A stretch of 19,889 bases of DNA, taken from a virus. The stretch is from the UHGV virus genome UHGV-0130218. One strand, 5' to 3'. Under the pieces are notes generated by a model. That model saw only the letters and a program-made list of their open reading frames with translations, had not been told where the DNA came from and did no database searches. The stretch's first letter is position 1, and the number at the start of each line of letters is the position of its first letter. Shown one piece after another: positions 1-18,943 of this stretch. The translations under genes were made by a program, and so were the position numbers.

Positions 1-9
1 GTTGCCGAT

Positions 10-35
10 CTGAGGTCGGTTAAGTCGCTGCGGGT
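10..35. repeat. Direct repeat copy 1 (partner at 1323-1348)
   Basis: Seen in sequence: 10-35 ctgaggtcggttaagtcgctgcgggt versus 1323-1348 ttgaggttggttatgtcgctgcgggc, with a 24-nt core differing at 2 positions. On the minus strand each copy overlaps a stop codon preceded by codons for ...PAAT. Confidence 0.7.
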
Positions 36-49
36 TTGTCTGCCTGTAG

Positions 50-349
50 CTACTTCGAAGAAAGGGCAAGTTTGCGCACAGTCGTCAGGAAATTGAATGG
101 GGTTGAATCCCACAACTCAGGTGAAAAATCAAATCCATACCGGCTTTTGAACTCCTCATCCAGCCTGTCTCCGTAAAGCACAAGGAAAGAATCGACCTCT
201 TCGGCTAACTCTTTTAACATCCAGTCGGGAGCTGTTTTTTTATAGAGTTCAACAGTGCCTTCAATAGTATCCTCTCCCTCATTTATGAGGTCATGATCCT
301 GATTGAAATAACCCTGAATCAGCTGATCAAGATGATAGAAACTTTGCAT
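50..349 (-). CDS. Putative immunity protein of the adjacent toxin-like ORF
   Basis: 99-aa ORF that starts 12 nt downstream of the toxin-like ORF on the same strand. Small, acidic (D/E-rich), no catalytic motif, as is typical of immunity partners of nuclease toxins. Family not assignable by eye. Confidence 0.45.
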   Translation of the reverse strand: MQSFYHLDQLIQGYFNQDHDLINEGEDTIEGTVELYKKTAPDWMLKELAEEVDSFLVLYGDRLDEEFKSRYGFDFSPELWDSTPFNFLTTVRKLALSSK

Positions 350-361
350 AATCCACCTGTC

Positions 362-1207
362 CTATGGGGTCGGGAATGCTGTAAGGATATAGTAAGGTTT
401 TCCGTTATACTCTTGCAATTCGATAACAATCCTCACTCCACGCATGCTGATGCGCTGTGTGCTGCCTCGCGTGAATCCATACCCAACCTCCTGACCGGCA
501 GAATAATTGATGGTAAGGCGTCCACCAATTTTACCACCTCCGAGTAACGATTTGATATTTGCCCGGTTAAGATAGACCGCCCTCGAAATAACATTTTCAG
601 CAACATTTAAGTCTTTAAACGTTGAAGACATAACAAGTCGCTTATTTTTCTCGAATCGGGCAAGTAACTCACTGTCAGTTTTTCCGACATGATTTGCGAG
701 TGTATGGCCGCCGGGTTTAAGACCCGTAACTGATTCATGCTGGATCAATTTGATGCGACCAGCTTTAATTGCAGCTACACGGACGGCACCAATAGCAGCT
801 GCAAATCCAAGCGGAACGGCTATATCAACTGTCATGCCGATATTGAGGGCGGTGTCTTCATCGGCACCAAGTTCTCTTGCCGCGCTTACAGCAATTTGCC
901 AGGTGGCTGAGCGCGTATCACGACCGGTTATTAGCTGTCTGGCTGCGCTTTGAACAGCGTCAAGACTATGTGCACCAACAACCACACATCCCGCTTTCGT
1001 TAGTCCTGTTGGTTCTGGCGCGATACATAGTGCCGTGGCACCGGCCATTTCTACCGCTCCGAGTAAAACGCCAAGTCCCCCCAACAGTCGGTTACTCAGC
1101 GTTTCCGCCTCTGTAATGCTTTTATCTGAAAGCACCGCCGCCAGCTGTACCGGTGACATAACAACGACCATTCCACCTTCTTCCATAACAGTATCCCATC
1201 CCTCCAT
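362..1207 (-). CDS. Putative polymorphic-toxin-like protein (Gly/Ala-rich pre-toxin segment ending in TG plus C-terminal nuclease-like domain)
   Basis: 281-aa ORF. N-terminal part has a Gly/Ala-rich hydrophobic segment (LLGGLGVLLGAVEMAGATALCIAPEPTGL...AARQLITG) resembling pre-toxin TG domains. C-terminal ~130 aa carries GGHTLANHVGK (His-x4-His-x2-Lys), reminiscent of EndoU/RNase-type toxin domains. No secretion or delivery domain is present, and the upstream frame closes 17 codons before the ATG. Confidence 0.5.
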   Translation of the reverse strand: MEGWDTVMEEGGMVVVMSPVQLAAVLSDKSITEAETLSNRLLGGLGVLLGAVEMAGATALCIAPEPTGLTKAGCVVVGAHSLDAVQSAARQLITGRDTRSATWQIAVSAARELGADEDTALNIGMTVDIAVPLGFAAAIGAVRVAAIKAGRIKLIQHESVTGLKPGGHTLANHVGKTDSELLARFEKNKRLVMSSTFKDLNVAENVISRAVYLNRANIKSLLGGGKIGGRLTINYSAGQEVGYGFTRGSTQRISMRGVRIVIELQEYNGKPYYILTAFPTP

Positions 1208-1322
1208 ATCCTGACTCGATAATAGCCAAAACTTTCTTCGGTTGATAAGAGTAAATTACTGGCTTTTCTTATTTATTTGAACTCATCATATTCAGCTGAG
1301 ATAAAAAGACGGCTGTTGCTGG

Positions 1323-1348
1323 TTGAGGTTGGTTATGTCGCTGCGGGC
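1323..1348. repeat. Direct repeat copy 2 (partner at 10-35)
   Basis: See copy 1. This copy overlaps the stop codon of the 63-aa ORF ending ...DEPAAT. Confidence 0.7.
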
Positions 1349-1524
1349 TCGTCGCATGTCGGCAGCCAGTCGTCGTAGCTTTCTTCTTTCAGTGACGGGT
1401 TGGTCTGTATCTCCTGCTTTATGTTCCGCTTCTCATGATTCAGGCCGTACTCTTTCAGCATCATGGGCAGCCCCTGCCCGAACATTTTCAGGCTGAGCAC
1501 CTTTCTGTATCCGTTAGCCTTCAT
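1333..1524 (-). CDS. Hypothetical 63-aa protein whose 3' end is duplicated downstream of the immunity ORF
   Basis: ORF with ATG start ending ...SYDDWLPTCDEPAAT. The last ~45 nt are related with indels to the sequence just past the immunity ORF stop, which encodes LQADKPAAT-stop in frame. No recognisable domain. Confidence 0.25.
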   Translation of the reverse strand: MKANGYRKVLSLKMFGQGLPMMLKEYGLNHEKRNIKQEIQTNPSLKEESYDDWLPTCDEPAAT

Positions 1525-1675
1525 ATGCGTATTCCGATGATTCCGGTGTTTTCGATCGCGCTTTTCGCGCTTTCCTGCTGCGCATTCGCGCTCTCGAAAT
1601 GAAGGGGGAGAGCGCGCCGCAGTCCGCGGCCATCGACGAGCTGCCGATGCGCTAAGTCGTCAGGGCAGCTTCGAT

Positions 1676-1819
1676 ATGAATCAGGAGCCGGTATTGTCCG
1701 TGACGGGTATGCACCGGCCGCAGATTACTGACGTTGATACGGAGCTGTTACGCAGCCCTGCGAAGAGGATGATGCTTGCCAGAAAGCTGGCTGAAAATGG
1801 CGAGACAAAAGCGGAGGAG
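1676..1819 (+). pseudogene. Short ORF abutting ogr/delta, possibly the C-terminal remnant of a truncated upstream late gene (sid-like position)
   Basis: 47-codon frame (MNQEPVLSVTGMHRPQITDVDTELLRSPAKRMMLARKLAENGETKAEE) ending 5 nt before the ogr/delta ATG. The frame is closed upstream at 1655-1657. The sid assignment is by position only. Confidence 0.2.
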
Positions 1820-1824
1820 TAAGC

Positions 1825-2043
1825 ATGTTTCACTGGCCGTTCTGCAAAACCAGCGCGCATTCCCGCACCAGTCGGTATCTGTCCGATAACGTCAAACAGC
1901 GCTATCACCAGTGCATGAACATAGAGTGCTCGGCCACGTTCCGCACGCTTGAATCCATCGACGGGGTTATTCGTTCACCGGCAACAGAGCCGGTCATCCC
2001 TGCACCCGCACCGGCGGCCACCGTTAACCGTGCCGGTGCGTAA
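1825..2043 (+). CDS. ogr: Ogr/Delta-family zinc-finger late-gene transcription activator (P2/P4 type)
   Basis: 72 aa. MFHWPFCKTSAHSRTSRYLSDNVKQRYHQCMNIECSATF matches the Ogr/Delta signature (P2 Ogr as I recall it: MFHCPLC...RTSRY...RYHQCQN.NCSATF). RBS ggagga lies 8 nt upstream. The first Cys ligand position is W (TGG). Confidence 0.85.
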   Translation: MFHWPFCKTSAHSRTSRYLSDNVKQRYHQCMNIECSATFRTLESIDGVIRSPATEPVIPAPAPAATVNRAGA

Positions 2044-2409
2044 GCACGGCCAGTTATCAGGAGAAACATACGTGACCACACTGACGCTACATAAATTATT
2101 CGGCGCAGGATAATGACATTTTAACGGTCATCGGATTCAGGCCTGACGCGGCTTCGCGCGATGATAGTCGTGAAAAATTCACACCCGCACAGAACCTGAA
2201 TTACACACGCCGCCGTGCAGAACTGGCCGTGCAGTAGTCCGCTTAAAAATCCCCGAAAATCCCGCCATTTTTACTTATAAGAGCCATGCATGCATAGGTG
2301 CATGGTTTTGCATGCGTTTTACCGACACTGAATTCCCCGCCAGCGCCAGCACTGGCGCGCTCTGAGGCCGGTCATGCGCCTGCATTAAAAGCGCCCCCTT
2401 AAGCGGGCA

Positions 2410-2428
2410 GGCGTGGCGGGGAGAGCAT
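2410..2428 (+). other. cos-like 19-mer (P2/P4 cohesive-end-like)
   Basis: GGCGTGGCGGGGAGAGCAT matches 16 of 19 positions of the P2/P4 cohesive-end sequence as I recall it (GGCGAGGCGGGGAAAGCAC). It sits where P4 has cos, between the delta/psu late genes and the int-proximal region. Confidence 0.4.
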
Positions 2429-2505
2429 TGCGCGCCAAAAGGCTTGAAAGGAATTCTTCACGGAGGCAATATTAAGATAATATAAACTTAAGTCAGGACG
2501 ATTGT

Positions 2506-2754
2506 ATGTATGATCAGTCTTTCAATCCGCGCACACTCTCACGATGTTTCAAACCTGAGGATTTCCATAAAAATAGAGCATTAAGTCTAGACAGTGTTCG
2601 AGAAAAGACTATTAACTCGGCTATCGAAAGATATAAGGATGGGTTCTTGGGTTATAATTTACGCTCATCCGTTTTAAGAGGGAAAACAGTATATTGGGCC
2701 GATGAGTTAGCTGATGTATTGGTCTTGAGGAAAATTAAAAAAAAATTTATCTAA
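2506..2754 (+). CDS. Reverse transcriptase, N-terminal (fingers) segment; frame ends inside an A9 tract
   Basis: ATG with RBS agga 8 nt upstream. 82 codons encoding ...GYNLRSSVLRGKTVYWADELADVLVLRKIKKK, consistent with RT motifs 1/2. Stops at 2752-2754, just after the A9 run at 2737-2745. Confidence 0.6.
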   Translation: MYDQSFNPRTLSRCFKPEDFHKNRALSLDSVREKTINSAIERYKDGFLGYNLRSSVLRGKTVYWADELADVLVLRKIKKKFI

Positions 2755-2845
2755 GCTATATCAATTAAGATTACCTTCTCGAACAAAGATTGTTGATACA
2801 TTAAAGGTTTTTTTATCAGAGTGTTCACAGTATAAAATATACAGA

Positions 2846-3769
2846 TTGGATATATTTTCATTTTATGAATCTTTCGATAAAAACTATATATTTAATAAAA
2901 TAGATGGATTGGAGCGGTTAGAGCTTAAAACAAAGCAGGTTCTAAAGGAATTTCTTTATTCATTCTATCTGAATGGTGGGCAAGGAATACCAAGAGGATT
3001 GTCAATCAGTGCATACTTGGCAGAGTTACTAATGTATGATTTCGATAATCAAGTGAAAGATAACCACTCTGTTTTTTATTATGCTAGGTATGTAGATGAT
3101 ATAGTTATTGTCACTAGTGGTTACGAAGATAGTGATGCTTTTATTGAGAATGTAAAATCAAACCTTCCAAATGGATTGCGTTTTAATGAAGGGAAGAAAT
3201 ATTATATTAGCGATTTAATTCCAAAATCTTCCAAAAAAACAAACCGTGCACCCTCCAAAAAATTGTTATCCTTTGAATATTTAGGGTACGATTTTAGCGT
3301 GGGAGATAAAATTGAAGAGTGCAATATAAGAGGATTCTATAGGGTAATTGAAATTGATCTTGCACATGCAAAGGCTAATAAAGTAAAAAGTAGAGTGATT
3401 TATTCGATTGTTGATTTTAATAAAACCAATGATTTTGAGTTGCTATGTGAAAGACTAAAATTCCTGTCCACAAACTTTAGTGTTTTAGATTCAGATAGAG
3501 TATTAAAACGGTTGTCGGGCATTCATTTTAATTATCCTCTTATTGATGCTAAATCTTCTAAGCGCCTTGCTGAACTTGATGTGTTTTTAAGAAAGGCTGT
3601 ATTATCATCTAGTGGTAAGGTTTTCTTTGATTTTCATGCGAACTTAAACCAATGCAAAAAATATCGATTACTTAAGATTAGTTTTGTTAGAGGCCATGAG
3701 AAACGTCATTTTTTTCATTATTCAGCTTCAAAAATGATGAAAATTCAAAGGTGTTGGAAATATGTCTAA
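2846..3769 (+). CDS. Reverse transcriptase, palm/thumb segment (the frame is open from 2729, so it is likely continuous with 2506-2754 after a +1 shift)
   Basis: RT motif A YRLDIFSFYESFDKNYIF, motif B QGIPRGLSISAYLAELLMYDFD, motif C YYARYVDDIVIV, motif D/E LRFNEGKKYYIS. No ATG or GTG precedes these motifs in this frame; the ORF track uses TTG at 2846. AT-rich. Confidence 0.8.
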   Translation: MDIFSFYESFDKNYIFNKIDGLERLELKTKQVLKEFLYSFYLNGGQGIPRGLSISAYLAELLMYDFDNQVKDNHSVFYYARYVDDIVIVTSGYEDSDAFIENVKSNLPNGLRFNEGKKYYISDLIPKSSKKTNRAPSKKLLSFEYLGYDFSVGDKIEECNIRGFYRVIEIDLAHAKANKVKSRVIYSIVDFNKTNDFELLCERLKFLSTNFSVLDSDRVLKRLSGIHFNYPLIDAKSSKRLAELDVFLRKAVLSSSGKVFFDFHANLNQCKKYRLLKISFVRGHEKRHFFHYSASKMMKIQRCWKYV

Positions 3770-5714
3770 AAAAAAGGAAGTAAGAGTTAATAAAAAAGAT
3801 TTTAATAGGGTTTTAGTTACTGAAACCATACCCTATGAAACGCCTATAATAGTGTCCAATGATGGTTTTTATAACAATGTAGTTAAATATACAACGGCCA
3901 ATGATACTGCTAAGGTATTGATTCAAAGAATAATTCTAGGGGAAAAGAAGAAAGGTAGGTATACGATTCCCTATGTTTTTAAAATTAATAAAAATGAGAC
4001 GGAGTTTCGACGTTTAGCCTTTCCACACCCCATATCTCAGATTGAAATGCGGGATTTTTATCTCCATTTTAATCAAATGATGATCAATTTTTGTTCCCGT
4101 AGTGATTTTTCTATTCGGCGACCGGTGAAGGTTGCAAGTACATATTATTATAAGAACTTATTGGAAGACAAGAATTTATATAAGAGAGGGCCTGTTGATA
4201 CCGACAAAAATGAACTATTAACTCGGCATGCTTCTTCATATTTTGGCTATCACGGATATGATCGCCTGTATAAGTTCTTTATGTCTAATGAGTTTATTGA
4301 CCTTGAGCGTAAATATAATACGCTATATACATTAGATGTTTCAAAATGTTTCGACAGTATCTATACTCATTCAATTTCTTGGGCTGCAAAAACCAAGACT
4401 TTCATTAAAGGGATGTTAGCTAATAAATCATTAAACTTTGGTGATGCTTTTGATAAATTAATGCAACGTTGCAACTTTAACGAAACCCATGGTGTAATTA
4501 TCGGTCCAGAAATTAGTCGAATATTCGCTGAGGTTATATTTCAAAAAATAGATTTAAATGTTCAGTTTAAATTAAATAATATCGAGCCATCGATACGTAA
4601 GGGTATCGATTATGATATTCGCCGTTATGTTGATGATGTTTTTATTTTTGCTAAAAATGAAACTAATGCCGAAATTATATATAAGATTTACACTGATAAA
4701 CTGAATGAATATAACATGCATATAAATTTGGGTAAAGTAACAAAAAACACTCGACCTTTTATCACAGCAAAAACGCAAATTATACATCACGTCAATCAAA
4801 GAATGAATTTATTTATTGAATCTTTTCTTGGTTATGATGATGAAATGAAATTAATCGCAAAGCCAATATATAACAATAGGAAGTTAGCTAACAAATTTAT
4901 AGATGAGGTGAAAATAATATGTGCTGAAAATAATGCGGGATATGGTGAGGTTGCTTCTTATATTGTGTCGGCGATTTTTGAAAGAATTAAAAGATTAACT
5001 TCTTCAGTTAATCAAGTCGAAGATAAAGATATATACAATGCAATGTATGTTTTGCTCCATATTTCATTGTTCTTTTTCAGAGTTGCTCCGTCTGTTAGTT
5101 CATCATATAAATTGGCTTCAATACTTATCGTGGCTCTCAGATATTTTAAGGCTAAAGTACCATCATACAGTGAGCTTATAGCATCATATGTTTATTTTGA
5201 AATTGAAGACTTTCTTAAATCTGCTAATACTAGCAAAGTAGCCATAGATAATCTAATTAGTCTTGAGGCATATAATATTATGTATGTTATAGGTGAGCTA
5301 GATCAAGAACGATATTTATCAAAACAGTTGATTGAGAACATTTTTAGTGAAGTTGATTCTTATTTTGATATAGTGTCCTGTCTATATATCGTAAAGGATA
5401 AGAAAGTTTATAATACACTTAAAAATAAAATTATTGATATTATTAACTCCAAGTTAATGTCAAGTGATAGTATTTTGGATTATAGTGAAAAGGCAATGCT
5501 CTTTTTGGATGTTATGTCTTGCCCTTATATTGATTTAAAATGGAAAAAAATATGGTTGAAATCAACTTTAAAAGAATTGCAAGAAGCTACTCCTAACAAT
5601 GAAAAAATAGATAGTTTTATCAGTTATTCTGTAGCGAATCCTTGGTTTGTGGACTGGAGTAATGTCGATCTTTTGAATTTCTTAGAAAAAAAACAATTGA
5701 AAAAAGCCTATTGA
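3762..5714 (+). CDS. Reverse transcriptase with long alpha-helical C-terminal extension (UG/Abi-type, defence-associated RT-like)
   Basis: 650 aa. Motif A YTLDVSKCFDSIYTHSI, motif B HGVIIGPEISRIFAEVIF, motif C RRYVDDVFIFAKN, followed by ~300 aa of predicted helical sequence. Its ATG overlaps the upstream RT stop by 8 nt, indicating translational coupling. AT-rich. Confidence 0.85.
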   Translation: MSKKKEVRVNKKDFNRVLVTETIPYETPIIVSNDGFYNNVVKYTTANDTAKVLIQRIILGEKKKGRYTIPYVFKINKNETEFRRLAFPHPISQIEMRDFYLHFNQMMINFCSRSDFSIRRPVKVASTYYYKNLLEDKNLYKRGPVDTDKNELLTRHASSYFGYHGYDRLYKFFMSNEFIDLERKYNTLYTLDVSKCFDSIYTHSISWAAKTKTFIKGMLANKSLNFGDAFDKLMQRCNFNETHGVIIGPEISRIFAEVIFQKIDLNVQFKLNNIEPSIRKGIDYDIRRYVDDVFIFAKNETNAEIIYKIYTDKLNEYNMHINLGKVTKNTRPFITAKTQIIHHVNQRMNLFIESFLGYDDEMKLIAKPIYNNRKLANKFIDEVKIICAENNAGYGEVASYIVSAIFERIKRLTSSVNQVEDKDIYNAMYVLLHISLFFFRVAPSVSSSYKLASILIVALRYFKAKVPSYSELIASYVYFEIEDFLKSANTSKVAIDNLISLEAYNIMYVIGELDQERYLSKQLIENIFSEVDSYFDIVSCLYIVKDKKVYNTLKNKIIDIINSKLMSSDSILDYSEKAMLFLDVMSCPYIDLKWKKIWLKSTLKELQEATPNNEKIDSFISYSVANPWFVDWSNVDLLNFLEKKQLKKAY

Positions 5715-5880
5715 ATTGCTAATTTGTTGTTGAAGCAACCAATATGCCCTACACGATTTTTCGATATACTAGGGCTGATTACGGTAGGTAAGTTGCATGT
5801 AACCTGGCCTACCTTATGACGCTCAAGAGCAGAAATGCACACACTAAGGGATGAGGTTGCTTCAACCCCTTTTATTTTCT
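5715..5880 (+). ncRNA. Candidate structured non-coding RNA downstream of the RT operon
   Basis: 5729-5740 GTTGAAGCAACC and 5855-5866 GGTTGCTTCAAC are perfect reverse complements (12 bp), enclosing ~115 nt with internal stems such as 5784-5789 GGTAGG / 5808-5813 CCTACC. A T-rich tail follows. No ORF. Confidence 0.35.
5848..5880 (+). terminator. Putative intrinsic terminator for the RT operon
   Basis: Stem GGTTG-CTT-CAACC at 5855-5867 followed by CCTTTTATTTTCT. The int stop codon (5862-5864 on the minus strand) lies in the loop. Confidence 0.4.
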
Positions 5881-7058
5881 ACAAAATTCCCCCACCACAG
5901 CATCAGCTCTACTCTTTGTTGCAAATAGACAGAGCGGTTGTATGCTCTTCGTACCTCATTCTTATCAGAATGAGCTAGTGCTGCTTCAATGACGTCTGGA
6001 TTAAATCCTTCTTCATTAAGCGTCGTGCTAGCTATCGAGCGTAAGCCATGAGCAACTAGCTTCCCATTCCAGCCAACTCTTTTTAGTGCAGCATTAGCCG
6101 TCTGGCTATTCATAGCTTTCTTAGGGTCATTTCTACTTGGAAAAACATGATCACGGTGCTTACTGATGGGTGCCATGATCTCAAGAATATAAAGCGCCTG
6201 AGGAGATAGAGGAATTAAATGTTCACGCTTCGCTTTCATCCTTTCGGCGGGGATTGTCCAGAGTTTTGAGTCGAGATCGATCTCTTCCCACCTGGTACCG
6301 GAGGCTTCAGAAGGGCGTACAAGGGTTAGGAGTTGCCACTCAATTAGACAGCGAGTAGGAACAGACAGATTTGACATAACCAAAGAACGCATCAGACTTG
6401 GTAATTCTTCTGGTCTAAGCGTAGGCATATTTTGCTTTTTAGGCCTCTCAAAAGCCATTCCAACTCCTGAGGTTGGGTTTGCGTCAATCAAGCCGGTATT
6501 TACCGCGTAAATCATAATCTCATTAATACGCTGTACCAGACGACGAACAGTCTCCAGAGCACCACGCGCTTTGATTGGCTCTAATGCTTCAACAATTGTT
6601 CTGGCCTTAATCTCCTGAACAGGTATCGTGCCTATTGCAGGGAAAACGTCCTTGTCTAAAGATCGCCAAATATCTTTTGCATAGTCTTCGGTGACGCTTT
6701 TGCTCTTCATTTTGAACCAGTTGGTGGCCACAGTTGAGAAAATGCTATCCAGCTCTATCTGACGCTTTTCTGATGCATGCTCTTGTTGCTGTTGTGGATC
6801 CATATCTAGCGCGAGCATGGTTAAGTGCTGGTCGCGTATCTGACGAGCTGCTGCGAGTGTAAAGGCAGGGTATGAGCCGAGACTCAAATTTGTGCGGCTG
6901 CTGCTTCCCGGTCGTTGATAACGGAAGCGCCAGAGTTTTTTGCCGGAGGTTTTTACGAGTAAGAACAGGCCATCACCATCATGCAGGGTGAAGTCTTTTT
7001 CGCGGGGTTTTGCTTTGAGGATTTCGTTGTTAGTGAGGGGGCGTGTAATGCGCGCCAT
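5862..7058 (-). CDS. int: P4-type tyrosine integrase
   Basis: 398 aa. N-terminus LTNNEILKAKPREKDFTLHDGDGLFLLVKTSGKKLWRFRYQRPG is typical of P4-family integrase arm-binding domains. The C-terminal catalytic region has HGLRS...LAHSDKNEVRRAYNRSVYL (R, H-x-x-R, Y). RBS aggga upstream. It is adjacent to a tmRNA 3' fragment, as with CP4-57 intA. Confidence 0.9.
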   Translation of the reverse strand: MARITRPLTNNEILKAKPREKDFTLHDGDGLFLLVKTSGKKLWRFRYQRPGSSSRTNLSLGSYPAFTLAAARQIRDQHLTMLALDMDPQQQQEHASEKRQIELDSIFSTVATNWFKMKSKSVTEDYAKDIWRSLDKDVFPAIGTIPVQEIKARTIVEALEPIKARGALETVRRLVQRINEIMIYAVNTGLIDANPTSGVGMAFERPKKQNMPTLRPEELPSLMRSLVMSNLSVPTRCLIEWQLLTLVRPSEASGTRWEEIDLDSKLWTIPAERMKAKREHLIPLSPQALYILEIMAPISKHRDHVFPSRNDPKKAMNSQTANAALKRVGWNGKLVAHGLRSIASTTLNEEGFNPDVIEAALAHSDKNEVRRAYNRSVYLQQRVELMLWWGNFVENKRG

Positions 7059-7079
7059 GTCTGGATCCCTTCCATAATT

Positions 7080-7127
7080 GGTACACGTTTAATGGACCAC
7101 AGTATAGCGTGTACCTAAACGTGTACC
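7080..7127. promoter_or_regulatory. Cluster of three 8-mer repeats (CGTGTACC) upstream of int; candidate integrase/regulator binding sites
   Basis: GGTACACG at 7080-7087 (inverted) and CGTGTACC at 7108-7115 and 7120-7127, between the int start and the att core. Confidence 0.3.
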
Positions 7128-7171
7128 TATTTTCTCTGGATTTAACCGGATGTTCTCGGACAACGCCAGAC

Positions 7172-7210
7172 ACAAAAAAGCCCGCAGGGCTTGCGCCGTG
7201 CGGGCTTTCA
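7172..7210 (-). terminator. Intrinsic terminator downstream of the tmRNA 3' fragment (minus strand)
   Basis: Minus-strand reading: GCCCGCA-(12-nt loop)-TGCGGGC followed by TTTTTTGTG (plus coordinates 7205-7172). Confidence 0.5.
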
Positions 7211-7262
7211 GGACTTCATCGGATGACTCTGGTAATCACCGATGGAACATTTTGGTGGAGCT

Positions 7263-7300
7263 GGCGGGAGTTGAACCCGCATCCGTAACCAGCTATCTCA
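7263..7300 (-). other. ssrA: tmRNA (ssrA) 3'-terminal fragment serving as att core (not a complete gene)
   Basis: Reverse complement of 7263-7290 is GCGGGTTCAACTCCCGCCAGCTCCACCA, which matches the T-arm, acceptor 3' strand and CCA end of enterobacterial tmRNA. Sequence beyond 7300 is AT-rich coding DNA with no tag-peptide region. Confidence 0.7.
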
Positions 7301-7311
7301 TTGAAAAATAA

Positions 7312-8172
7312 TCAAATAAATTTGTTTTTCCATGTCTCGTATCTTTTACGTATCCTTTGAAGTAGTAATGCCGTCCAGCTAAGGCCGTGAGAGAATGTTA
7401 GATTAAAAGTTGCTTCCACTGTATCTCCACGTATTGAGAATCTATTTATCCGATATTCAGTAGAAAAAAACTCTTTTTTTGTTGTTCCAGAGATTTCTTC
7501 ATATTCAATTAATAAAACAGGCCCATCTATTTGAGTTAACATATTTTCATGGAGGCTGATTTTATCCAAGAGGTAGTTAGATAATAGTGTCGGTATTAAT
7601 GTGGGGATGTGAAGATTTACCTCTTCTTTGTTAACGCTCCAAGGGAGAATATAAACAACATCAGAATATTGTTCTTCATGAGAATACCATTTGGATTGAC
7701 CAAAACCTAATAATGAAATGTAAGTGTGACCTTGTTTGTCTAATTGATAACAGTATTCATTAGCCATCATGGCTGCTTTGTAACCTTTGGTGTCAAAGGT
7801 ATGTTCATCGTCTAGTTTTTTTATTTTATTTAACAAAAAATGTTTTTCGTAATTGAATATCCATTGGTATTTGAATTTCAACGCTGGGCCTAGACCAACA
7901 TTTAATATTGGCAGGGTGGGATTGTTGTTTTTTGATATAGCATCAAAAACACCTTTGTTTACTATTTTTGTTTTATCAATTTTTATTTTTACATCTTTAG
8001 TGATTATCTGTACTTTGTTTGATAACTTTCTTTGGATAACAGTTTGCCTTATAGCTAAATAAGCAGCAATTGCTGATAAAGCACTTGCTGTCAAACCACC
8101 ATATCCGAGCCATGCGGGGTCTGCCATATCGAAGTATTCCTGCCTTATAACAAGGCAGGAATTATTTCTCAA
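7312..8172 (-). CDS. Hypothetical membrane-anchored protein; AT-rich moron between the lambdoid int and the att core
   Basis: 286-codon ORF with a TTG start; a more likely ATG start at 8127 gives MADPAWLGYGGLTASALSAIAAYLAI, a predicted N-terminal transmembrane helix. The ~240-aa soluble domain has no motif I recognise. Strongly AT-rich compared with the neighbouring int. Confidence 0.6.
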   Translation of the reverse strand: MRNNSCLVIRQEYFDMADPAWLGYGGLTASALSAIAAYLAIRQTVIQRKLSNKVQIITKDVKIKIDKTKIVNKGVFDAISKNNNPTLPILNVGLGPALKFKYQWIFNYEKHFLLNKIKKLDDEHTFDTKGYKAAMMANEYCYQLDKQGHTYISLLGFGQSKWYSHEEQYSDVVYILPWSVNKEEVNLHIPTLIPTLLSNYLLDKISLHENMLTQIDGPVLLIEYEEISGTTKKEFFSTEYRINRFSIRGDTVEATFNLTFSHGLSWTALLLQRIRKRYETWKNKFI

Positions 8173-9344
8173 TTCTTCACATTGTTCAAGGATGTGATCG
8201 ATGAGTTGTTATCATAATCTTTCAAATAGCGTCCGTAATGACGAAAGAGCATCTCAGGTCCTTTGTGGCCCATCTGCGCAGCCAGCCAAAATAAGTTTAC
8301 ACCGCAGCTTATCATACGTGTGGCGAATGTATGCCTTGTCTGATAAGGATTACGGTACCTGATACCGGCTTTCCGGAGCGTAGGAACCCAGGCTTTTTTC
8401 CTAATGGCGTCCGCGCTGGCCCATGGCTTGTTTGTCTTCGGATCTTCAAAGACACAACCATTCTTCATGAAGCTAAAGGGCTTTTGTTCGTTTAGAGCAA
8501 TCATCGCTTCCTCGGTTAACTCAACCTTGCGTGTTCCTGCCTTCGTTTTCGTACCTTTCGTCACGCCAGAGACGCTGGCGCTCTGTACATGAGCCGTCTT
8601 CTCAACGAAGTCAATGTCCCTCCAGCGTAGTGCGCAAAGTTCCGAACTGCGTAGACCTGTCTGAAGCGCAAATCTGAATAAGTTCTCCCATTGCTTATTA
8701 CCCGCTGATTTTAACAGCGCGCTTACCTCTGCTGGAGATAGTGGATCAACAATATAAGTACTTTCCTCGTCACTTTTTTTGCTTTGATATCGTGAAGCTG
8801 TTACCTGTGACACTGGATTAATTTGTAAAACACCATCAGTTACAGCTTCATCAAGTGAGGAACGAAGAAACGACAACTGGTTACGTATCGTCTTCAATGT
8901 TGTTTTCTGATTCTGAATCCATGTTTTTAATGCTGCTGGCGTTAACTCACTGGCCGGGAAAATGTGAAGTTCAGACAGTGCGCTACGGCATTTTTTATAC
9001 CCGCCAATGGTGGAGGGGGAAAGATTCCTCGTTTCGCAAATCTTCAGGTACTCATCAAGATACATTTTCACTGTTTTCCCGGTCGCAGCATTACCGAAAA
9101 TTTTTAACCTCACCGAACGAGGGAAATATTCAGCATAGATAAATGTTCCACGCTCGATTTTGTTGTGGATTTCGCCGAGCATACGCTCGGCATATTTAAG
9201 GTTTTTGTTGTTCACTTCTAGATTTGAAAGGGGTTCTCTGCATTTCACCCCCTTGTATGTGAACGTAATATTGATGGTTTCACCACTGCTGTGCTTCCTG
9301 ATGGTTACACCACGTGGGAGTTTAGGCGATTCTTTCGTGCCCAT
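8169..9344 (-). CDS. int: Phage tyrosine integrase (lambdoid type)
   Basis: 391 aa. C-terminal catalytic region RNPYQTRHTFATRMISCGVNLFWLAAQMGHKGPEMLFRHYGRYL (R...H-x-x-R...Y). Its start overlaps the xis-like ORF. Confidence 0.9.
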   Translation of the reverse strand: MGTKESPKLPRGVTIRKHSSGETINITFTYKGVKCREPLSNLEVNNKNLKYAERMLGEIHNKIERGTFIYAEYFPRSVRLKIFGNAATGKTVKMYLDEYLKICETRNLSPSTIGGYKKCRSALSELHIFPASELTPAALKTWIQNQKTTLKTIRNQLSFLRSSLDEAVTDGVLQINPVSQVTASRYQSKKSDEESTYIVDPLSPAEVSALLKSAGNKQWENLFRFALQTGLRSSELCALRWRDIDFVEKTAHVQSASVSGVTKGTKTKAGTRKVELTEEAMIALNEQKPFSFMKNGCVFEDPKTNKPWASADAIRKKAWVPTLRKAGIRYRNPYQTRHTFATRMISCGVNLFWLAAQMGHKGPEMLFRHYGRYLKDYDNNSSITSLNNVKN

Positions 9345-9523
9345 TTTGCAACCTCACTAAGATCTATCCATCTCTCCTTAACGCCTTCAACCTTAAGCAC
9401 CTGCACCCCTTCACGCCAAACGCCGCGCTGTACACGCTTATTGATCGCATCTGGGGTTTCGCCAGTCTCTTTGCAATAAGTTGAGATGGGAACACAATCG
9501 AGGCTCAGCATATACTTCTCCAT
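9305..9523 (-). CDS. xis: Excisionase-like small DNA-binding protein
   Basis: 72 aa, basic. Overlaps the int start by 40 nt, the classic xis-int arrangement. Confidence 0.6.
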   Translation of the reverse strand: MEKYMLSLDCVPISTYCKETGETPDAINKRVQRGVWREGVQVLKVEGVKERWIDLSEVAKWARKNRLNSHVV

Positions 9524-9545
9524 TAACTCGGCTGCACCCGAGTAA

Positions 9546-10118
9546 TTAAAACTTGTCGCTGTTGGTAGGGATCAGTTTCTGCCAAATTGCTGACAAATAT
9601 TTTGCCTGGTGTCGCGCATCAGCTAGGGCATTGTGCACATCGCCAATAAAAGGCATGTCACGCTTCGGATCGAAACCGACACTGCGACCAAGCGTAACAA
9701 TAGTGCGCACATCGTGATCGTTCCAAAAGCCCCAAGGGCATATGCGGCCGGCGCGTTCGTAAGCTCCACGCAGAATCACATTGTCAAAGGTGGCACCGTT
9801 ACCCCAGACCTTCATGTATTTTGGATTATCTGCGTGCCGGTGAATGAAATGGCTCAGTTCCGACAGTGCATCAGTGATAGGCAGCGCATCATCAACACAA
9901 ATAGCTGAGCGCGCTTCCGAGCTTTGTTTGAGCCACCAAAGAATAGTATCTCCGTCCGGTACCGCACCCTGATCCATTGCGCTTTCAAGCGAGATGGCCG
10001 TATAGAATTCTTGACCAAGTTCACCTGTATGAGGGTTAAAAAAGACGGCACCAATTGACACGATCGGCGCGTTTGGCTTTTTTCCCATCGATTCGAGGTC
10101 AATCATTAAGTCGTTCAA
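9546..10118 (-). CDS. DnaQ-like (DEDDh) 3'-5' exonuclease
   Basis: 190 aa. N-terminal Exo I motif MIDLESMG, and a C-terminal His/Asp motif HNALADARHQ. Confidence 0.65.
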   Translation of the reverse strand: MNDLMIDLESMGKKPNAPIVSIGAVFFNPHTGELGQEFYTAISLESAMDQGAVPDGDTILWWLKQSSEARSAICVDDALPITDALSELSHFIHRHADNPKYMKVWGNGATFDNVILRGAYERAGRICPWGFWNDHDVRTIVTLGRSVGFDPKRDMPFIGDVHNALADARHQAKYLSAIWQKLIPTNSDKF

Positions 10119-10402
10119 TTGCTTTCTCCATTGTTCTTGGCTTCTGATTCACTGTGGGGGCTGTAGCGCGAGTCGGCGTTGTCGCTAACGTGGCAATAAT
10201 GAGCCCCGTCAGGACGAGTACAAATTGTCCCGCACCTATCACATGCCAATATTGCTTCCAGCTCCGCGATCCGCTCCTCTGCTTTTGACAACTGCTCGAG
10301 AAGTTCTTCTGCTAACGTCACACGCATCACGACTTTCTGACAGTCGTGGCGCTTGGCTCTGGCGATTGTGCCGCGCAGACTCGCATAATTGTTGGGGGTC
10401 AT
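10115..10402 (-). CDS. Hypothetical phage early protein (Cys-containing, coiled-coil)
   Basis: 95-aa ORF overlapping its downstream neighbour by 4 nt, indicating an operon. No assignable domain. Confidence 0.5.
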   Translation of the reverse strand: MTPNNYASLRGTIARAKRHDCQKVVMRVTLAEELLEQLSKAEERIAELEAILACDRCGTICTRPDGAHYCHVSDNADSRYSPHSESEAKNNGESN

Positions 10403-10596
10403 TGGACGGACTCCTGACGAAGATGGTTAATTTCGGCGTCAAGGCTCATTCGCTGGTCCATCGATTCCGTCAAGGCGGCAAATGTAACGTCCAGGCGAGT
10501 GGCTACCTCACGCATCAGAGAAGCTTCTGCTGGTGACAGTTTCTCCGCCGCAGCATGGGCTGCGGCTACCAGTTCTTTTATCTTCATGCGAGGCAT
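10399..10596 (-). CDS. Hypothetical small phage early protein
   Basis: 65-aa ORF in the same operon, overlapping both neighbours. Helical, charged. Confidence 0.45.
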   Translation of the reverse strand: MPRMKIKELVAAAHAAAEKLSPAEASLMREVATRLDVTFAALTESMDQRMSLDAEINHLRQESVQ

Positions 10597-11123
10597 GCGC
10601 GTGATTCCGTAAGCTCATTGAAACGGTTAATGAACAAGCCATATGCTTGGCCTGGACGAAGAGGGACGATCTGGATAATGTCGCTGGCCGGTATACCTTC
10701 AAGACAAGGCCAGAGTGAGCCGTCGTCGATATCCAGATCGCGGCGTTCAGTGGCAAGCATCACCAGATCGGCGTATTTCACTACCGCTGACATATCAGGG
10801 GTGATGCTGAATTTGGCCCGGATCAGCTGTTCTACCCGCTCTTCAATGCGACGATAATCTGGAAGCAATGCCTTTAGGGGGGCAGGTATGTCTTGGCAAT
10901 AGGCTTCAGCTGCATCATGCATCAGGGCTTCAAAGGCAAACTCTGGCGGCACAATTTGGCTGCACAGTACCGAGTGCTGGGCCACGCTGTAAAATTCCGG
11001 CAGATGACCACTGAAGCGGCAGATGTGGGAAAGTGCGGTCGCAATATCCTCGAGCTCTACATCGTCAGCGGTTGAATTAAGGTAATTGAATTTCTTACCT
11101 GAAAGTGTCTGGATATAACTCAT
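10584..11123 (-). CDS. HD-domain phosphohydrolase (YfdR-like prophage protein)
   Basis: 179 aa. HD signature ...SVAQHSVLCS...ALMHDAAEAY. Size and neighbourhood match the CPS-53 yfdP-yfdQ-yfdR arrangement. Confidence 0.75.
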   Translation of the reverse strand: MSYIQTLSGKKFNYLNSTADDVELEDIATALSHICRFSGHLPEFYSVAQHSVLCSQIVPPEFAFEALMHDAAEAYCQDIPAPLKALLPDYRRIEERVEQLIRAKFSITPDMSAVVKYADLVMLATERRDLDIDDGSLWPCLEGIPASDIIQIVPLRPGQAYGLFINRFNELTESRACLA

Positions 11124-11257
11124 CGTCTTTTCTTCTCCATATTTGGCAGCTGCACCTGCGCTAGTTTTGGTTGTACGAATCCCTCGCCTTTGGCGATTAA
11201 TAAAGGGAATTGCGCTTCAATAAATCCCCGCGGCGCCGGGGATTTAATGCAGAGAAA

Positions 11258-12088
11258 TTACGCTTTAAAGTTACCGATAAAGGTTTCTACTGGCTCGCCG
11301 TCGAATTTGCTGATTAGCAGATCTCGGAATTCATTGGCGATCGCTTCTTCCTGCGCTTCCAGCTGAACAATACGCAGAACAAAGCGTGGTTCGTCACCTG
11401 TGAGTAGACTATTGCGAAGGCTGAATGCTCGCTCACCAAGACCTTCATACGGCACGCATTTGAACTCGAACGCTACCGGCATTACATCTTTGCTGCTGGC
11501 CTCAACGCTCTGCATTAGTGATTTTTTCCCGCTGAAATCACCGTCTTCATGATCCTGCTGAGTCGCCTGCTGGATAGTGATGCGACGAACAGCCTGAGCA
11601 GCCTGTGAAATCTGCATGGTATTTCCTTCAGCATCAAAGGCCAGCAGGTAATCACTCCAGTCTTCCAGCCATTCGGCGATCTGCTTTTGCTTCAGTCGGT
11701 CACCGTTAATCGCCAGCAGCGCGCGGAAAGGTGCAGTCTGTTTCAGGGTGATTGCAGCAACGTTATCAGCATGGCCTGGGTTTTCCAGCGTGCCGATATT
11801 GAACACGGAGCGTGCTGTCATATTGTCCGCATCGATAAAGCAGCGAGCCGGCTCTTCGACACTGGCATACCCTTTAGAATAACGGGCGAAATCATTGATG
11901 CTGGTCGTGGTCATGGCGCCACGGAAGCGGAAGCGCTCCAGTGAAAAATTTTCCAGGCTCGCTACCTTTGTATTTTCCGGCAAAATAGCTGTTGGACAGG
12001 CGAGTCCGTTAATATCATTCAGGTGATAGCCGGAGAGAACCAGGTCTTTAACCTGTTTGATGGCGCTGCTGTCTAGTTGCTGAGACAT
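11258..12088 (-). CDS. YfdQ-like prophage protein (DUF2303-type)
   Basis: 276 aa. Called from size and position between the YfdP-like and YfdR-like genes. No catalytic motif recognised. Confidence 0.6.
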   Translation of the reverse strand: MSQQLDSSAIKQVKDLVLSGYHLNDINGLACPTAILPENTKVASLENFSLERFRFRGAMTTTSINDFARYSKGYASVEEPARCFIDADNMTARSVFNIGTLENPGHADNVAAITLKQTAPFRALLAINGDRLKQKQIAEWLEDWSDYLLAFDAEGNTMQISQAAQAVRRITIQQATQQDHEDGDFSGKKSLMQSVEASSKDVMPVAFEFKCVPYEGLGERAFSLRNSLLTGDEPRFVLRIVQLEAQEEAIANEFRDLLISKFDGEPVETFIGNFKA

Positions 12089-12144
12089 AAAAATTCCTTA
12101 TCTGCTAATGATCGAAGTGGTTGCAGTGAATTGGTTGAGGCGGT

Positions 12145-12516
12145 TCACTGAGCCGCTTTAAGCTTTCCGTCAACGCCGCCGTTGATGCCGAACAACTGTC
12201 CCTGATCTTCTTGGAGGATGGTCAGCTTGCCGCCTTTGTTAACCCACATTGGTGTTTCGGTGGTGTCTTCTTCGGAGGCTTTACCGCGCGGGGTAGGGGT
12301 TACGTAGTTCAGCTTGTGCTTGATCTTGACGCGCTTCTCTTCGACGGAGTTACCCATACGCTCAATATCAAAGGTGAGGACTACTTTGCCTTTGGTACCG
12401 TTGTTCAGAACGCCAAGCGCGGTAGTGTTTAAAGCTGCCGCGATCTTGTTCATGAACACGCCGGCATCCAGTTCGCCCAGGAAATCGGGCACTACGGTCA
12501 TGCGGTCATTACTCAT
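12145..12516 (-). CDS. YfdP-like prophage protein
   Basis: 123 aa, first sizeable ORF of the leftward early operon. Assignment is by synteny and size only. Confidence 0.5.
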   Translation of the reverse strand: MSNDRMTVVPDFLGELDAGVFMNKIAAALNTTALGVLNNGTKGKVVLTFDIERMGNSVEEKRVKIKHKLNYVTPTPRGKASEEDTTETPMWVNKGGKLTILQEDQGQLFGINGGVDGKLKAAQ

Positions 12517-13267
12517 GGTTTAACCCTCTGTGAGGCGGCTGCCACCGCCAGTGGAACTTCTCCATACACAACAGAAAAGGGCACCTGCGTAGCAGTGAAG
12601 ATTGCAGCCTCCATTTCTGCGCCCGGGTGGATTGGGGAATGAGCCCGTCGCCCGGTGATGCCCTTGTCTCTTGTGTAAAAAAGGTGCCCACCGATGTGAT
12701 GGGCAAAGACTACTCACAGCAATGATTTTGTTGTGGCGGTGGTGCCTCCACCTGCCGGACCGGCCAGAACCGGCGACGCTACACCTCAAGAAACGTATTC
12801 ATTTCAAATGTTGAAATAAAAACTTGTTGGCCTCGTCACGTGCGCAGAGCCGCATTACCACAACTGGAAGCGCACTCCGCCAGGTAACAAACCGATCCCC
12901 ATCAGTAAGAAGAGGAGTGCGCTTTCATGTTGTGTTGTGTTGGTCGGTGCTGATCTCCGGCTTTCGGGATGGTTTTGCCATTGCCCCGCGCGGGTTAATA
13001 GTCCGCTGCACATCAGCCTGTGCATTCACCACAACGGTGAGGGCACTGTTTATCTGCTTTACCGATTCGCGTCTCACGCAGTCCGATAATCAGCAATGCT
13101 CTCGCCTGTTGTGCCCTTAAAAAGCTGGCTGTCACCCTCAAGGGGAAAGTGAGCAGCCAGAACAGGGATCACTTCTTATTGCTTTGGCCTGCTTTTAACC
13201 ACATCAGGCGCGGTGGTTCTGCTTAACAACCGCGAAAGTAATAGTGGGTACCAATCGCGTGATTTAA

Positions 13268-13319
13268 ATGTACCTTTAGTTACTTTTTCGGTCAAGCGAG
13301 GAATGTACTTTTTGTTACC
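13268..13319. promoter_or_regulatory. OL-like operator region (two copies of the ATGTACYTTTWGTTAC motif)
   Basis: 13268-13283 atgtacctttagttac and 13303-13318 atgtactttttgttac, immediately 3' of the repressor gene. The same motif recurs at 14078-14093 in the cI-cro intergenic region. Confidence 0.45.
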
Positions 13320-13371
13320 ATGAGGGATAAAAAAAATGCCAGATGAGCATCCGGCATTAGAAATGAATAAC

Positions 13372-14031
13372 TTAAATATTCTGGGTTATCTGAACAACTT
13401 TACCGACAATCCGGCAATTTCCATCTATCGGTATAGGTTTGAAGGCAGGATTAAGCGGCATCAGATACGCGAAAGGGCTATCCCAGACGAGTTTTTTCAC
13501 TGTTGCTTCAGCAGAGCCATCAAGTATCGCCACGACTATTTTCCCGTAAAGGTCATCCAGTTGGCCATAGTGTGGTTCAACTATTACGATCGACCCTTCG
13601 GGTATGGATGGTAGACCATGTGGGTTAGTCATCGATTCCCCACGAACAACCAGGCCGAATACTTCATCAGAAACGTTTGCAGTGGTTTGCGTCCATGAAA
13701 TCACATCAGAAAGCCTTGAGCATGCGTAAGTATCAGTCCACGTCCCTGCCTGGACAGCAGAGATAATTGGAACTGCCTTAGGGGGCTTGAGAAAGGGGAT
13801 CACTTTGGTGTCATCCTGCGCTTCATCTCCTTTCCCGTAGAGAATCCATTCAGGCGTGGTTTGCAACGCCATCGCCAGCTGATGGAGGTTCTCACCATCA
13901 GGCTTCGTGTTACCGCTCTCCCATTTAGTAACGGACACGCGGCTAACACCTAGGCGTTTAGCTAGGGTCTGCTGCGTTATATCGAGCTGGACTCGACGGG
14001 ATCTTATTCGGTCTTTCATCTCTGTTTTCAT
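13372..14031 (-). CDS. cI: CI-type phage repressor (HTH plus S24 LexA-like peptidase domain)
   Basis: 219 aa. N-terminal HTH QQTLAKRLGVSRVSVTKWESG. C-terminal GESM (Ser nucleophile) and ATVKKL (Lys) motifs. Divergent from the cro-like gene. Confidence 0.85.
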   Translation of the reverse strand: MKTEMKDRIRSRRVQLDITQQTLAKRLGVSRVSVTKWESGNTKPDGENLHQLAMALQTTPEWILYGKGDEAQDDTKVIPFLKPPKAVPIISAVQAGTWTDTYACSRLSDVISWTQTTANVSDEVFGLVVRGESMTNPHGLPSIPEGSIVIVEPHYGQLDDLYGKIVVAILDGSAEATVKKLVWDSPFAYLMPLNPAFKPIPIDGNCRIVGKVVQITQNI

Positions 14032-14094
14032 GTAACCAATGTTACATTGATTCCTTGTAACTGTTGTTTGCTATTTGATGTACCTTTTGTTACC
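14032..14094. promoter_or_regulatory. OR-like operator region between cI and cro
   Basis: Inverted half-sites TGTAAC-N4-GTTACA at 14031-14046, gtaactgttg at 14055-14064, and atgtaccttttgttac at 14078-14093. RBS aggagg at 14113-14118 precedes cro. Confidence 0.45.
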
Positions 14095-14123
14095 TTTAAG
14101 GCGTGAGTTAACTAGGAGGAGCC

Positions 14124-14312: not shown

Positions 14313-14349
14313 GCATCTGGGAAGAAACCACAGATATAAGGGGTTAGCC

Positions 14350-14898: not shown

Positions 14899-15070
14899 TC
14901 CGCATGACCAGTTTAACGGCTTTTAACCGTTTACCGCAACTCAGGATGATCCCGGTACCGGGCGCTCCGTTGTTTCGGTATGAACGCAGAATAGCAAACC
15001 GCTGGGTGCCATGTAACCACAGTCGGGCGGTCGCAATTGTGGGGGTTTACTACAGGAAGGCGAAACGCTT

Positions 15071-18929: not shown

Positions 18930-18943
18930 TATGGAGAAATAGC

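Follow-up and report, generated by a model that had tools for sequence, protein, structure and literature searches.

A toxin/immunity cassette between two copies of a primase gene end in a decayed P4-like satellite

The virus genome UHGV-0130218, a stretch of 19,889 nucleotides that was analysed as a whole and is called the window below, carries near its left end a toxin-like gene and a small acidic gene bracketed by two near-identical direct repeats. The locus raises the question of what these repeats are, how a gene pair came to lie between them and what the pair is used for. An earlier note, made from the letters alone, had proposed a polymorphic toxin with its immunity gene and, for the downstream repeat, a displaced gene end; the observation was confirmed and both of these main interpretations were supported. 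The downstream repeat is a displaced end of the alpha primase gene of a P4-like satellite. We hold with moderate confidence that the pair is an effector/immunity cargo of the T6SS (type VI secretion system) type, located near the attachment site attR of a decayed P4-like satellite. The repeats are two alpha ends with their terminator, and bases 1-1554 are the attR-proximal end of this satellite in an Enterobacter-type genome.

The flanking repeats

All genes of the cassette region (alpha stub, toxin and immunity gene) lie on the minus strand in the list of open reading frames (ORFs) of the window, a point that the earlier note overlooked although its ORFs are as given. Read 5' to 3' on that strand, an ORF of 63 amino acids (aa) is followed by a 125-bp spacer, an ORF of 281 aa, 12 nt, an ORF of 99 aa and a repeat of the end of the first ORF (coordinates in Table 1). 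The 63-aa ORF does exist, but its identity had been missed: it is part, from an internal Met, of a stub of a P4-type alpha primase gene. The stub matches the C-terminal part of PF03288 (Pox_D5, E 1e-7) in Pfam and corresponds to aa 704-777 of E. coli alpha in tblastn, and in blastn more than 1,200 E. coli alpha genes cover window 1526-1303, that is, the 63-aa ORF and 30 bp past its stop.

The repeat pair (11-40 and 1324-1353) is identical at 26 of 30 positions, compared with a mean of 20 and a maximum of 22 for the best 30-mer match in 60 shuffles of bases 1-2400. The repeats, previously given as 24 bp, are genuine, but they are longer and include the terminator; the similarity, allowing one or two indels, continues through the terminator beyond the left end of the window, whose base 1 lies inside the loop of the terminator hairpin. 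The leftward extension that had been proposed as a check was made with locus L004, an exact match to the window. Here the immunity stop is followed by the alpha-end remnant, a hairpin terminator, P4-type crr iterons (GGTGAACA) and chromosomal genes. The terminator of this downstream copy (copy 2) is intact (AGATCGGC-AACA-GCCGGTCT-TTTT, -12.5 kcal/mol; the canonical E. coli alpha terminator has -14.6 kcal/mol), with its 3' arm, T-run and the crr iterons just beyond the left end of the window, and BLAST matches copy 2 to the E. coli alpha end plus crr. The in-frame LQADKPAAT-TAA that had been noticed after the immunity stop TAG is also present. The coding part of the upstream copy (copy 1) is the last ~20-45 bp of the alpha stub, and at the position of copy 1 an intact hairpin is found in L089 and L015. 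The E. coli alpha homology stops at window 1303, and the cassette starts directly behind the T-run of copy 1.

We aligned L004, L013, L014, L015, L074 and L008 with alpha ends (blastx of the DNA past the immunity gene against alpha proteins was uninformative except for L008, and the DNA alignment was used instead). The junction between the immunity gene and the alpha remnant is identical in these loci and lies ~45 bp before the alpha stop; the L004/L074 lineage shows an additional 10-bp loss in the displaced copy. The original structure was alpha with its stop and a first terminator (T1), then the cassette (~1.26 kb), then the last ~45 bp of alpha with its stop, a second terminator (T2) and crr. 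Since the displaced copy first started at this ~45-bp distance from the stop and was shortened by 10 bp only afterwards, the original duplication was ~79 bp, not 24 bp. The same junctions occur at two integration sites, ssrA (L004, L014) and selC (L074, L008), and the arrangement is present in several species-level lineages.

The borders of the insert were defined by a comparison with cassette-free genomes, which the earlier note had also suggested. The empty site of E. coli (L001) runs uninterrupted from the alpha stop through the same hairpin into crr. Compared with the occupied L089 and L013, the insert begins after GGTCTTTTT on the left, and on the right the sequence resumes at the alpha-end remnant, T2 and CTTTC...crr. 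The downstream copy is thus colinear with the alpha primase gene end, its terminator and the crr iterons, uninterrupted in cassette-free satellites; it is a displaced alpha gene end as had been suspected, and neither a transposon footprint nor an att site.

Other candidates for the repeats were considered and rejected. They are not att sites, being unlike the ssrA 3' end and the sequence downstream of it, and near the right end of L004 no further copy of the attL region was found. They are not crr iterons, since the GGTGAACA iterons begin only past copy 2. A transposon footprint was rejected as no transposase and no significant inverted repeat was found at the borders. The 1.26-kb insert as a whole holds no transposase, recombinase or terminal inverted repeat, and to our knowledge a footprint of ~79 bp fits no transposition mechanism and is far longer than that of any transposon.

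The element that carries the cassette in the window is a non-functional remnant of a P4-like satellite at ssrA. The intact order is represented by E. coli L001 (tRNA, int, hotspot, psu, delta, sid, regulators, alpha, terminator, crr, attR); int, psu, delta, sid and alpha are all recognisable in P4 order in the window, where psu, sid and alpha are stubs. As judged from the ends of the tblastn and blastn matches and the intact order in L001 and L089, the part from alpha aa 1-703 through sid aa 1-158 is missing at the deletion junction. The integrase adjoins ssrA in L002 and L004. After copy 2, one of the two ~120-bp crr repeats of E. coli remains (L004 11237-11310; the match spans ~387 bp in E. 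coli versus ~141 bp), and this reduced crr is a further sign that the element can no longer replicate. A 17-nt direct repeat (73-89 and 1648-1664, 15 of 17 identical) is shared by the immunity gene, in its 3' part, and the sid stub; roughly 0.2 such repeats are expected by chance in 2.4 kb, and it is probably meaningless.

The toxin, its immunity protein and their relatives

The 281-aa and 99-aa ORFs and their 12-nt gap exist as claimed in the earlier note, and the hidden Markov model searches that it recommended support its reading of a toxin/immunity pair of the polymorphic-toxin type. The C-terminus of the toxin matches PF18431 (RNAse_A_bac) with 115.2 bits (cut-off 27, E 3.7e-33) over profile positions 1-113 of 113 at aa 167-279, and in hmmsearch the profile of the toxin family matches 5E3E_B, the CdiA-CT chain of Yersinia kristensenii, with E 1.1e-21. 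In the AlphaFold2 (AF2) model the C-terminal domain (C-domain) has a per-residue confidence (pLDDT) of 75-94, and Foldseek aligned it to 5E3E_D and 5E3E_B with E 3e-9, a target TM score of 0.83 and 37-38% identity. The motif H-x4-H-x2-K described before is present as GGH-TLAN-H-VG-K (H168-x4-H173-x2-K176). Residues H173, R184, T276 and F278 of the toxin correspond to H175, R186, T276 and Y278 of CdiA-CT Ykris, and H173, R184 and T276 are invariant among 16 homologs. His175, Arg186, Thr276 and Tyr278 matter for the activity of CdiA-CT Ykris, and the substitution of Tyr278 by Phe is frequent among its homologs (PMC5435912). The C-domain is basic, with an isoelectric point (pI) of 10. A scan of NCBIfam returned nothing but RNase_A_lipo below threshold. 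On sequence and model, the C-domain is a bacterial RNase A-like toxin domain of the CdiA-CT Ykris type, for which RNase activity is predicted.

The 99-aa protein matches PF18593 with 76.2 bits (cut-off 26.7, E 3.6e-21) in Pfam and 5E3E_A weakly, and in 67 of 69 loci the gene behind the toxin is an immunity homolog. By sequence it is a CdiI_2 immunity protein that is predicted to neutralise the toxin. Compared with L074 and L008, the ancestral immunity stop TAG has changed to TCG in the L004-type lineage, and the gene is 2 codons longer there. The gene pair itself is ordinary: both families are already in Pfam, and the name given to the toxin by NCBI is RNase A-like domain-containing protein.

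The true start of the toxin is probably M8 (window 1186), which gives 274 aa, because this is where homologs begin and because in the close relative L014 the ATG further upstream is not in frame. The promoter scan of the leader ahead of the gene found 1 site where 1.7 are expected, which is weak by itself; both hexamers of this site are kept in L004, L013, L014, L015, L074, L008 and L089, and the leader is conserved in every occurrence of the cassette. The DNA homology with L008 begins at window ~1260 (L004 9948).

The N-terminal part of the toxin had been described as a Gly/Ala-rich, pre-toxin-like segment with no delivery domain attached. Its composition is as described (27.8% Gly+Ala). The pre-toxin assignment did not hold: PT-TG (PF14449) had no match at E<=0.1 in the window protein and none at E<=1 in 52 homologs. 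It is correct that Rhs, CdiA, PAAR and LXG are missing, but the statement passes over a conserved N-terminal domain (N-domain) of 158 aa, which is also found behind an Rhs core, and over Photorhabdus members of the family, which stand directly after hcp. Two stretches of the N-domain, aa 41-64 and 120-149, are hydrophobic; the domain is predicted to be helical at low confidence (AF2) and is better conserved than the toxin domain, with a mean pairwise identity of 63% versus 43% and the higher value of the two in 98% of pairs. Exhaustive searching with the N-domain found remote relatives (P0293, P0319, P0272 and P0300) in which it follows an Rhs core of 1008 aa (P0293), precedes an anthrax-lethal-factor-like (ATLF-like) metallopeptidase domain (P0319) or precedes unknown C-terminal domains. 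The N-domain therefore acts as a module that polymorphic toxins share. Of 20 remote relatives, 6 gave weak but colinear matches to DUF4225 (PF13988), all at profile 38-137 and one of them above threshold (P0293 with 26.9 bits for a cut-off of 25.9, P0272 with 25.5, P0190 with 19.2 and three others with ~16 bits), and the N-domain may be distantly DUF4225-like. DUF4225 has been shown experimentally to be an effector domain of Hcp modules (PMC9765294).

The toxin family consists of free-standing proteins of ~274 aa across Enterobacterales, with relatives that reach Ralstonia, Acetobacteraceae and Acidobacteriaceae. Most copies are isolated two-gene units in varied neighbourhoods and not on satellites, and some genomes hold several. 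In 10 Photorhabdus loci the toxin is preceded at ~50 bp by an orphan hcp (PF05638) and followed by 2-8 immunity paralogs. A damaged toxin (internal deletion or frameshift) stands beside an intact immunity gene in L074 (8001-8557), L064, L065, L068 and L071, and the immunity gene alone is apparently left in L079, L086 and L063.

We sampled 75 genome loci and 24 IMG/VR loci; in 10 and 9 of them, respectively, the toxin has alpha upstream of it, either complete or as a stub. These alpha-linked loci include toxin clades just 52-69% identical to that of the window, and the satellite-linked pair occurs in several lineages (Enterobacter, Pantoea, Tatumella and Erwinia). An identical toxin is present in many Enterobacter-type assemblies (index entries in 371 blocks), where the element adjoins smpB/ssrA. 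The cassette was not found in 5,426 complete E. coli genomes, in which the matches are the alpha end and the sid-delta-psu part. An intact-looking P4-like satellite with the cassette was found in IMG/VR (UViG_3300011240_000044, 1-11158; L089). It carries int, two hotspot genes, psu, delta, a sid gene of 247 aa and an alpha gene of 777 aa with 97% identity to the one in E. coli L001; the end of alpha and its terminator are identical to L001 at 67 of 67 positions with the cassette directly next, and the toxin is 98% identical to that of the window. The end of the contig coincides with the immunity stop, the point at which the repeat would start; assemblies typically break at such places, and a break caused by the alpha-end repeat would be expected to fall there. 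Two uncharacterised ORFs (383 and 214 aa) occupy the psu-int hotspot of this satellite.

The Tatumella ptyseos locus (L022) reads psu, delta, sid, further genes, alpha, terminator, crr, toxin, immunity gene and attR. The toxin-immunity pair of Pantoea and Erwinia stands between att sites, which are copies of a pseudo-ssrA 3' end with the ssrA terminator (L077 7702-7767, 9159-9227 and 11063-11128; L060 7653-7822; two each in L018 and L020). The att-flanked unit measures ~1.5 kb, holds no integrase and might be a substrate for mobilisation in trans. Pantoea satellites have further cargo in the interval from alpha to attR, namely proteins of 474 aa (L018 4561-5985) and 601 aa (L020 3986-5791), both without a Pfam domain, and of 502 aa with an HNH_2 domain (L077 5833-7341), together with a recurrent unknown pair of ~220 and ~190 aa (L020 6321-7518). 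This suggests a second variable region in Pantoea P4-like satellites.

Use and origin of the cassette

Interbacterial antagonism is the use that we infer to be most likely, because of the hcp linkage and the immunity arrays in Photorhabdus, the more conserved and shared N-domain and the orphan immunity genes. From its own promoter-like site the cassette would express the toxin, composed of the N-domain and the RNase A-like nuclease, and then a cytoplasmic CdiI_2 immunity protein that would block the nuclease. The host T6SS would secrete the toxin as a small cargo effector, probably via Hcp; the N-domain may help it to cross the inner membrane of the target, where the RNase would degrade RNA, and kin cells would be protected by the immunity protein. 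A homolog from Photorhabdus temperata was listed as a putative T6SS effector in 2017 (Batot et al., PMC5435912), and the genus Enterobacter has T6SSs (PMC13185608). Export by the T6SS in Enterobacter is an extrapolation by analogy, since a linkage to hcp, vgrG or PAAR is absent outside the Photorhabdus loci.

Several points weigh against this reading. The protein of 29 kDa is large for a cargo of the Hcp lumen, and neither hcp nor vgrG nor PAAR stands beside the cassette in the window or in any non-Photorhabdus locus. The model of the N-domain has a pLDDT below 50, and Foldseek found no credible match for its fold. The link to DUF4225 is weak: the window toxin has no match at E<=1, and among the close homologs the best match has E 0.062, in 3 of 52 and below the Pfam cut-off. 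With regard to the source of the duplication, copy 1 and copy 2 are ~87% identical, though copy 1 in L089 is 100% identical to the canonical E. coli sequence and alpha alleles recombine. Finally, a cytoplasmic pair on a mobile element could equally be an addiction or abortive-infection module.

This last alternative is the main rival, and we consider it unlikely. Here the pair would serve the satellite itself as an addiction or abortive-infection module directed against phages or the helper, with the RNase freed on infection or on loss of the element and no export. The cassette shares its P4-like satellite with DRT3, and satellites are known reservoirs of defence systems (PMC9122126). It also outlasts nearly everything else, as would be expected if it were addictive: in L008 the cassette follows selC directly, and much the same is seen in L021, L015 and the window. 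In Enterobacter it has no linked secretion gene. On the other hand, neither the toxin nor the immunity protein matched PADLOC-DB v2 at E<=0.01, where the neighbours were identified as Drt3a and Drt3b; the cassette lies outside the known psu-int hotspot; and the majority of the family members are not on satellites. The immunity protein is without the DNA-binding domain typical of type II antitoxins in the Pfam scan. The hcp linkage, the 2-8 immunity paralogs, the orphan immunity genes and the conserved N-domain with its fast-evolving toxin domain are hallmarks of interbacterial polymorphic toxins and not of toxin-antitoxin or abortive-infection modules.

It is improbable that the cassette is a small mobile element of its own, flanked by a target-site duplication or by recombination (att) sites. 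The direct repeats do lie exactly at its borders, the same 1.2-kb module is found at differing genomic places, and the minimal att-flanked pair of Pantoea and Erwinia could move in trans by a satellite integrase. However, besides the lack of mobility genes and terminal inverted repeats in the insert and a duplication that is too long for a transposon footprint, the repeats are ~87% and not 100% identical and consist of an alpha end with a terminator, not of an ssrA or selC att core. They are missing from the cassettes of Pantoea, Tatumella and Erwinia, and the att copies in Pantoea are ordinary satellite att sites in tandem arrays. The remaining alternative, an orphan cdiA-CT/cdiI module displaced from a contact-dependent inhibition (CDI, type V) locus, is very improbable: its closest solved relative is the CdiA-CT/CdiI complex of Y. 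kristensenii, Pfam uses the names CdiA-CT and CdiI, and orphan pairs with displaced gene ends are typical of CDI loci, but the toxin is a free-standing gene of 274 aa with a conserved Met start and no VENN motif or CdiA repeat upstream, neither cdiA nor cdiB is among the recurrent neighbours in ~100 loci, and the displaced gene end belongs to the alpha primase and not to a toxin gene.

The arrangement itself appears to have arisen once. In the simplest account, two satellites would have recombined a single time, with a homologous exchange in alpha and an illegitimate one directly behind the immunity gene; a large deletion inside a tandem array of satellites would give the same product. The arrangement would later have spread between satellites and att sites by recombination in alpha. 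The upstream alpha alleles differ, the alpha end being 100% identical to L001 in L089 and ~90% in the window, and the cassette is nearly identical; because of this, the module of T1, cassette, copy 2 and crr seems to have moved between satellites by recombination in alpha. No closer alpha lineage was found as a source of copy 2, for which the best E. coli matches are ~85% identical, and the duplication may alternatively have arisen in situ. Tandem arrays of decaying satellites are evident in related loci. In L015 an N-terminal fragment of the integrase is fused straight to T1; in L090 an int fragment is fused to alpha aa 741-777; L077 reads att, toxin-immunity pair, att, alpha remnant (from aa 561) with two genes, att; and in L021 and L008 selC is followed almost directly by the alpha stub or by the cassette itself.

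Going further, we tentatively suggest, while leaning somewhat against it, that P4-like satellites have a second cargo site between the alpha terminator/crr and attR, from which T6SS-type effector/immunity cassettes would be spread by helper-phage transduction. The cassette would then outlive the satellite and the att-flanked Pantoea and Erwinia units may move in trans; alternatively, the pair would be an anti-phage suicide module.

The carrier and the comparison with known systems

The coordinates of the cassette, of its carrier and of the neighbouring prophage are collected in Table 1. DRT3 is a defence system of two reverse transcriptases, and its region has a GC content of 31% (window, 47%). 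In the window Drt3a is broken into parts of 82 aa (2506-2754) and 307 aa (2846-3769), compared with a length of 420 aa in both L002 and L003 and of 373 aa in L004; the split gene may be a pseudogene or contain a sequencing error. Next to the P4-type integrase, a second and unrelated prophage occupies 7312-19889. Because the satellite directly abuts ssrA in L002 and L004, this prophage seems to have been inserted later at the same site.

Table 1 Features of the window. A point in the strand column denotes features given without a strand.
Feature	Position	Strand	Remarks
Copy 2, displaced alpha primase gene end	1..49	-	Pseudo-stop TAA 20-22; terminator 5' arm 4-11, loop part 1-3
Immunity gene (small acidic ORF)	50..349	-	99 aa; CdiI_2 (PF18593); pI 4.35; starts 12 nt past the toxin stop
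Toxin gene	362..1186	-	274 aa from M8; N-domain 713-1186; C-domain (predicted RNase A-like nuclease) 371-709
Toxin ORF as found mechanically	362..1207	-	281 aa
Cassette leader	1208..1302	-	Sigma-70-like promoter TTATCA-18-TATTAT at 1248..1219
Copy 1, non-coding part	1303..1332	-	Remains of the alpha terminator; stem lost; folds at -0.3 kcal/mol
63-aa ORF	1333..1524	-	Ends in DEPAAT-stop
Alpha primase/helicase stub	1333..1554	-	P4-type alpha aa 704-777 and stop (74 codons)
Deletion junction	1555..1562	.	Alpha stub joined to sid-like tail
Rest of decayed satellite (sid tail to integrase)	1563..7058	.	
sid tail	1563-1822	+	tblastn; E. coli annotation of matching genes
delta/Ogr	1825-2043	+	72 aa; Pfam Ogr_Delta
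psu tail	2091-2234	+	Last 48 codons; tblastn; E. coli annotation
DRT3 pair Drt3a/Drt3b	2506-5714	+	psu-int hotspot; PADLOC
P4-type integrase	5862-7058	-	Integrase domains; ssrA neighbourhood in L002 and L004
Second prophage, integrase	8169-9344		
Second prophage, Rv2179c-like exoribonuclease	9546-10118		
Second prophage, DUF2303	11258-12088		
Second prophage, S24 CI-type repressor	13372-14031		
Second prophage, CII/CP76	14143-14898		
Second prophage, replication protein	15240-16103		
Second prophage, C5 DNA methylase	16992-18929		645 aa

Among known systems, the CdiA-CT/CdiI pair of Y. kristensenii ATCC 33638 (5E3E) shares with the window the nuclease domain, aligned over 113 of 113 positions with 37-38% identity and with counterparts of His175, Arg186 and Thr276 (PMC5435912), and an acidic immunity gene of the CdiI_2 family directly downstream. 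The window toxin differs in being free-standing, where CdiA-CT forms the tip of a large CdiA exoprotein, and satellite-borne, with another N-domain of ~158 aa, Phe in place of Tyr278 and no CdiB or CdiA nearby. The Hcp-linked DUF4225 modules of T6SSs in Vibrio parahaemolyticus (Jana et al. 2022, PMC9765294) are likewise mobile two- or three-gene modules with a small effector that has no PAAR, VgrG or Rhs; the Photorhabdus members of our family follow an orphan hcp directly with immunity genes next, and the N-domain of the remote relatives is colinear with DUF4225 at ~38-137. In the window, in contrast, the DUF4225-like part would be N-terminal and joined to a second, nuclease domain, its similarity is below the Pfam threshold, no hcp is present, and the immunity protein is a soluble CdiI_2 protein and not a small membrane protein.

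The cargo hotspots of P4-like elements (Rousset et al. 2022, PMC9122126) are similar in that they hold accessory, conflict-related satellite cargo, and the psu-int hotspot of the window is occupied by DRT3. The cassette lies at the other end of the satellite, in the interval from the alpha terminator/crr to attR, and resembles an interbacterial weapon rather than an antiviral system; CdiA, RNase A and crr are unmentioned in the text of that paper. The novelty is modest: systems of this kind are known, and what is apparently undescribed is the recurrent cargo position on P4-like satellites. At the alpha-distal, attR-proximal ends of satellites the same pair is found repeatedly and is retained while the satellite erodes, and one carrier is intact-looking. 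If the toxin is truly a T6SS effector, then phage satellites would transport bacterial weapons together with their antidotes, beyond antiviral systems, and the flanking copies of the alpha end and terminator would serve as a simple sequence signature to find such cargo.

The closest published parallel is the T6SS Aux3 element of V. cholerae (Santoriello et al. 2020, PMC7721734). Aux3 differs in having a PAAR gene, a peptidoglycan hydrolase and a prophage-like origin of ~40 kb, whereas here the carrier is a P4-like satellite, the effector is a predicted RNase and its dependence on a T6SS is presumed. In both cases an effector/immunity pair rides on an integrative, phage-like element that has att sites and a P4-type integrase, and the pair is kept during decay, and retention of the Aux3 kind is seen in the window, in L008, L021 and L015 and in the att-flanked minimal units of L077 and L060.

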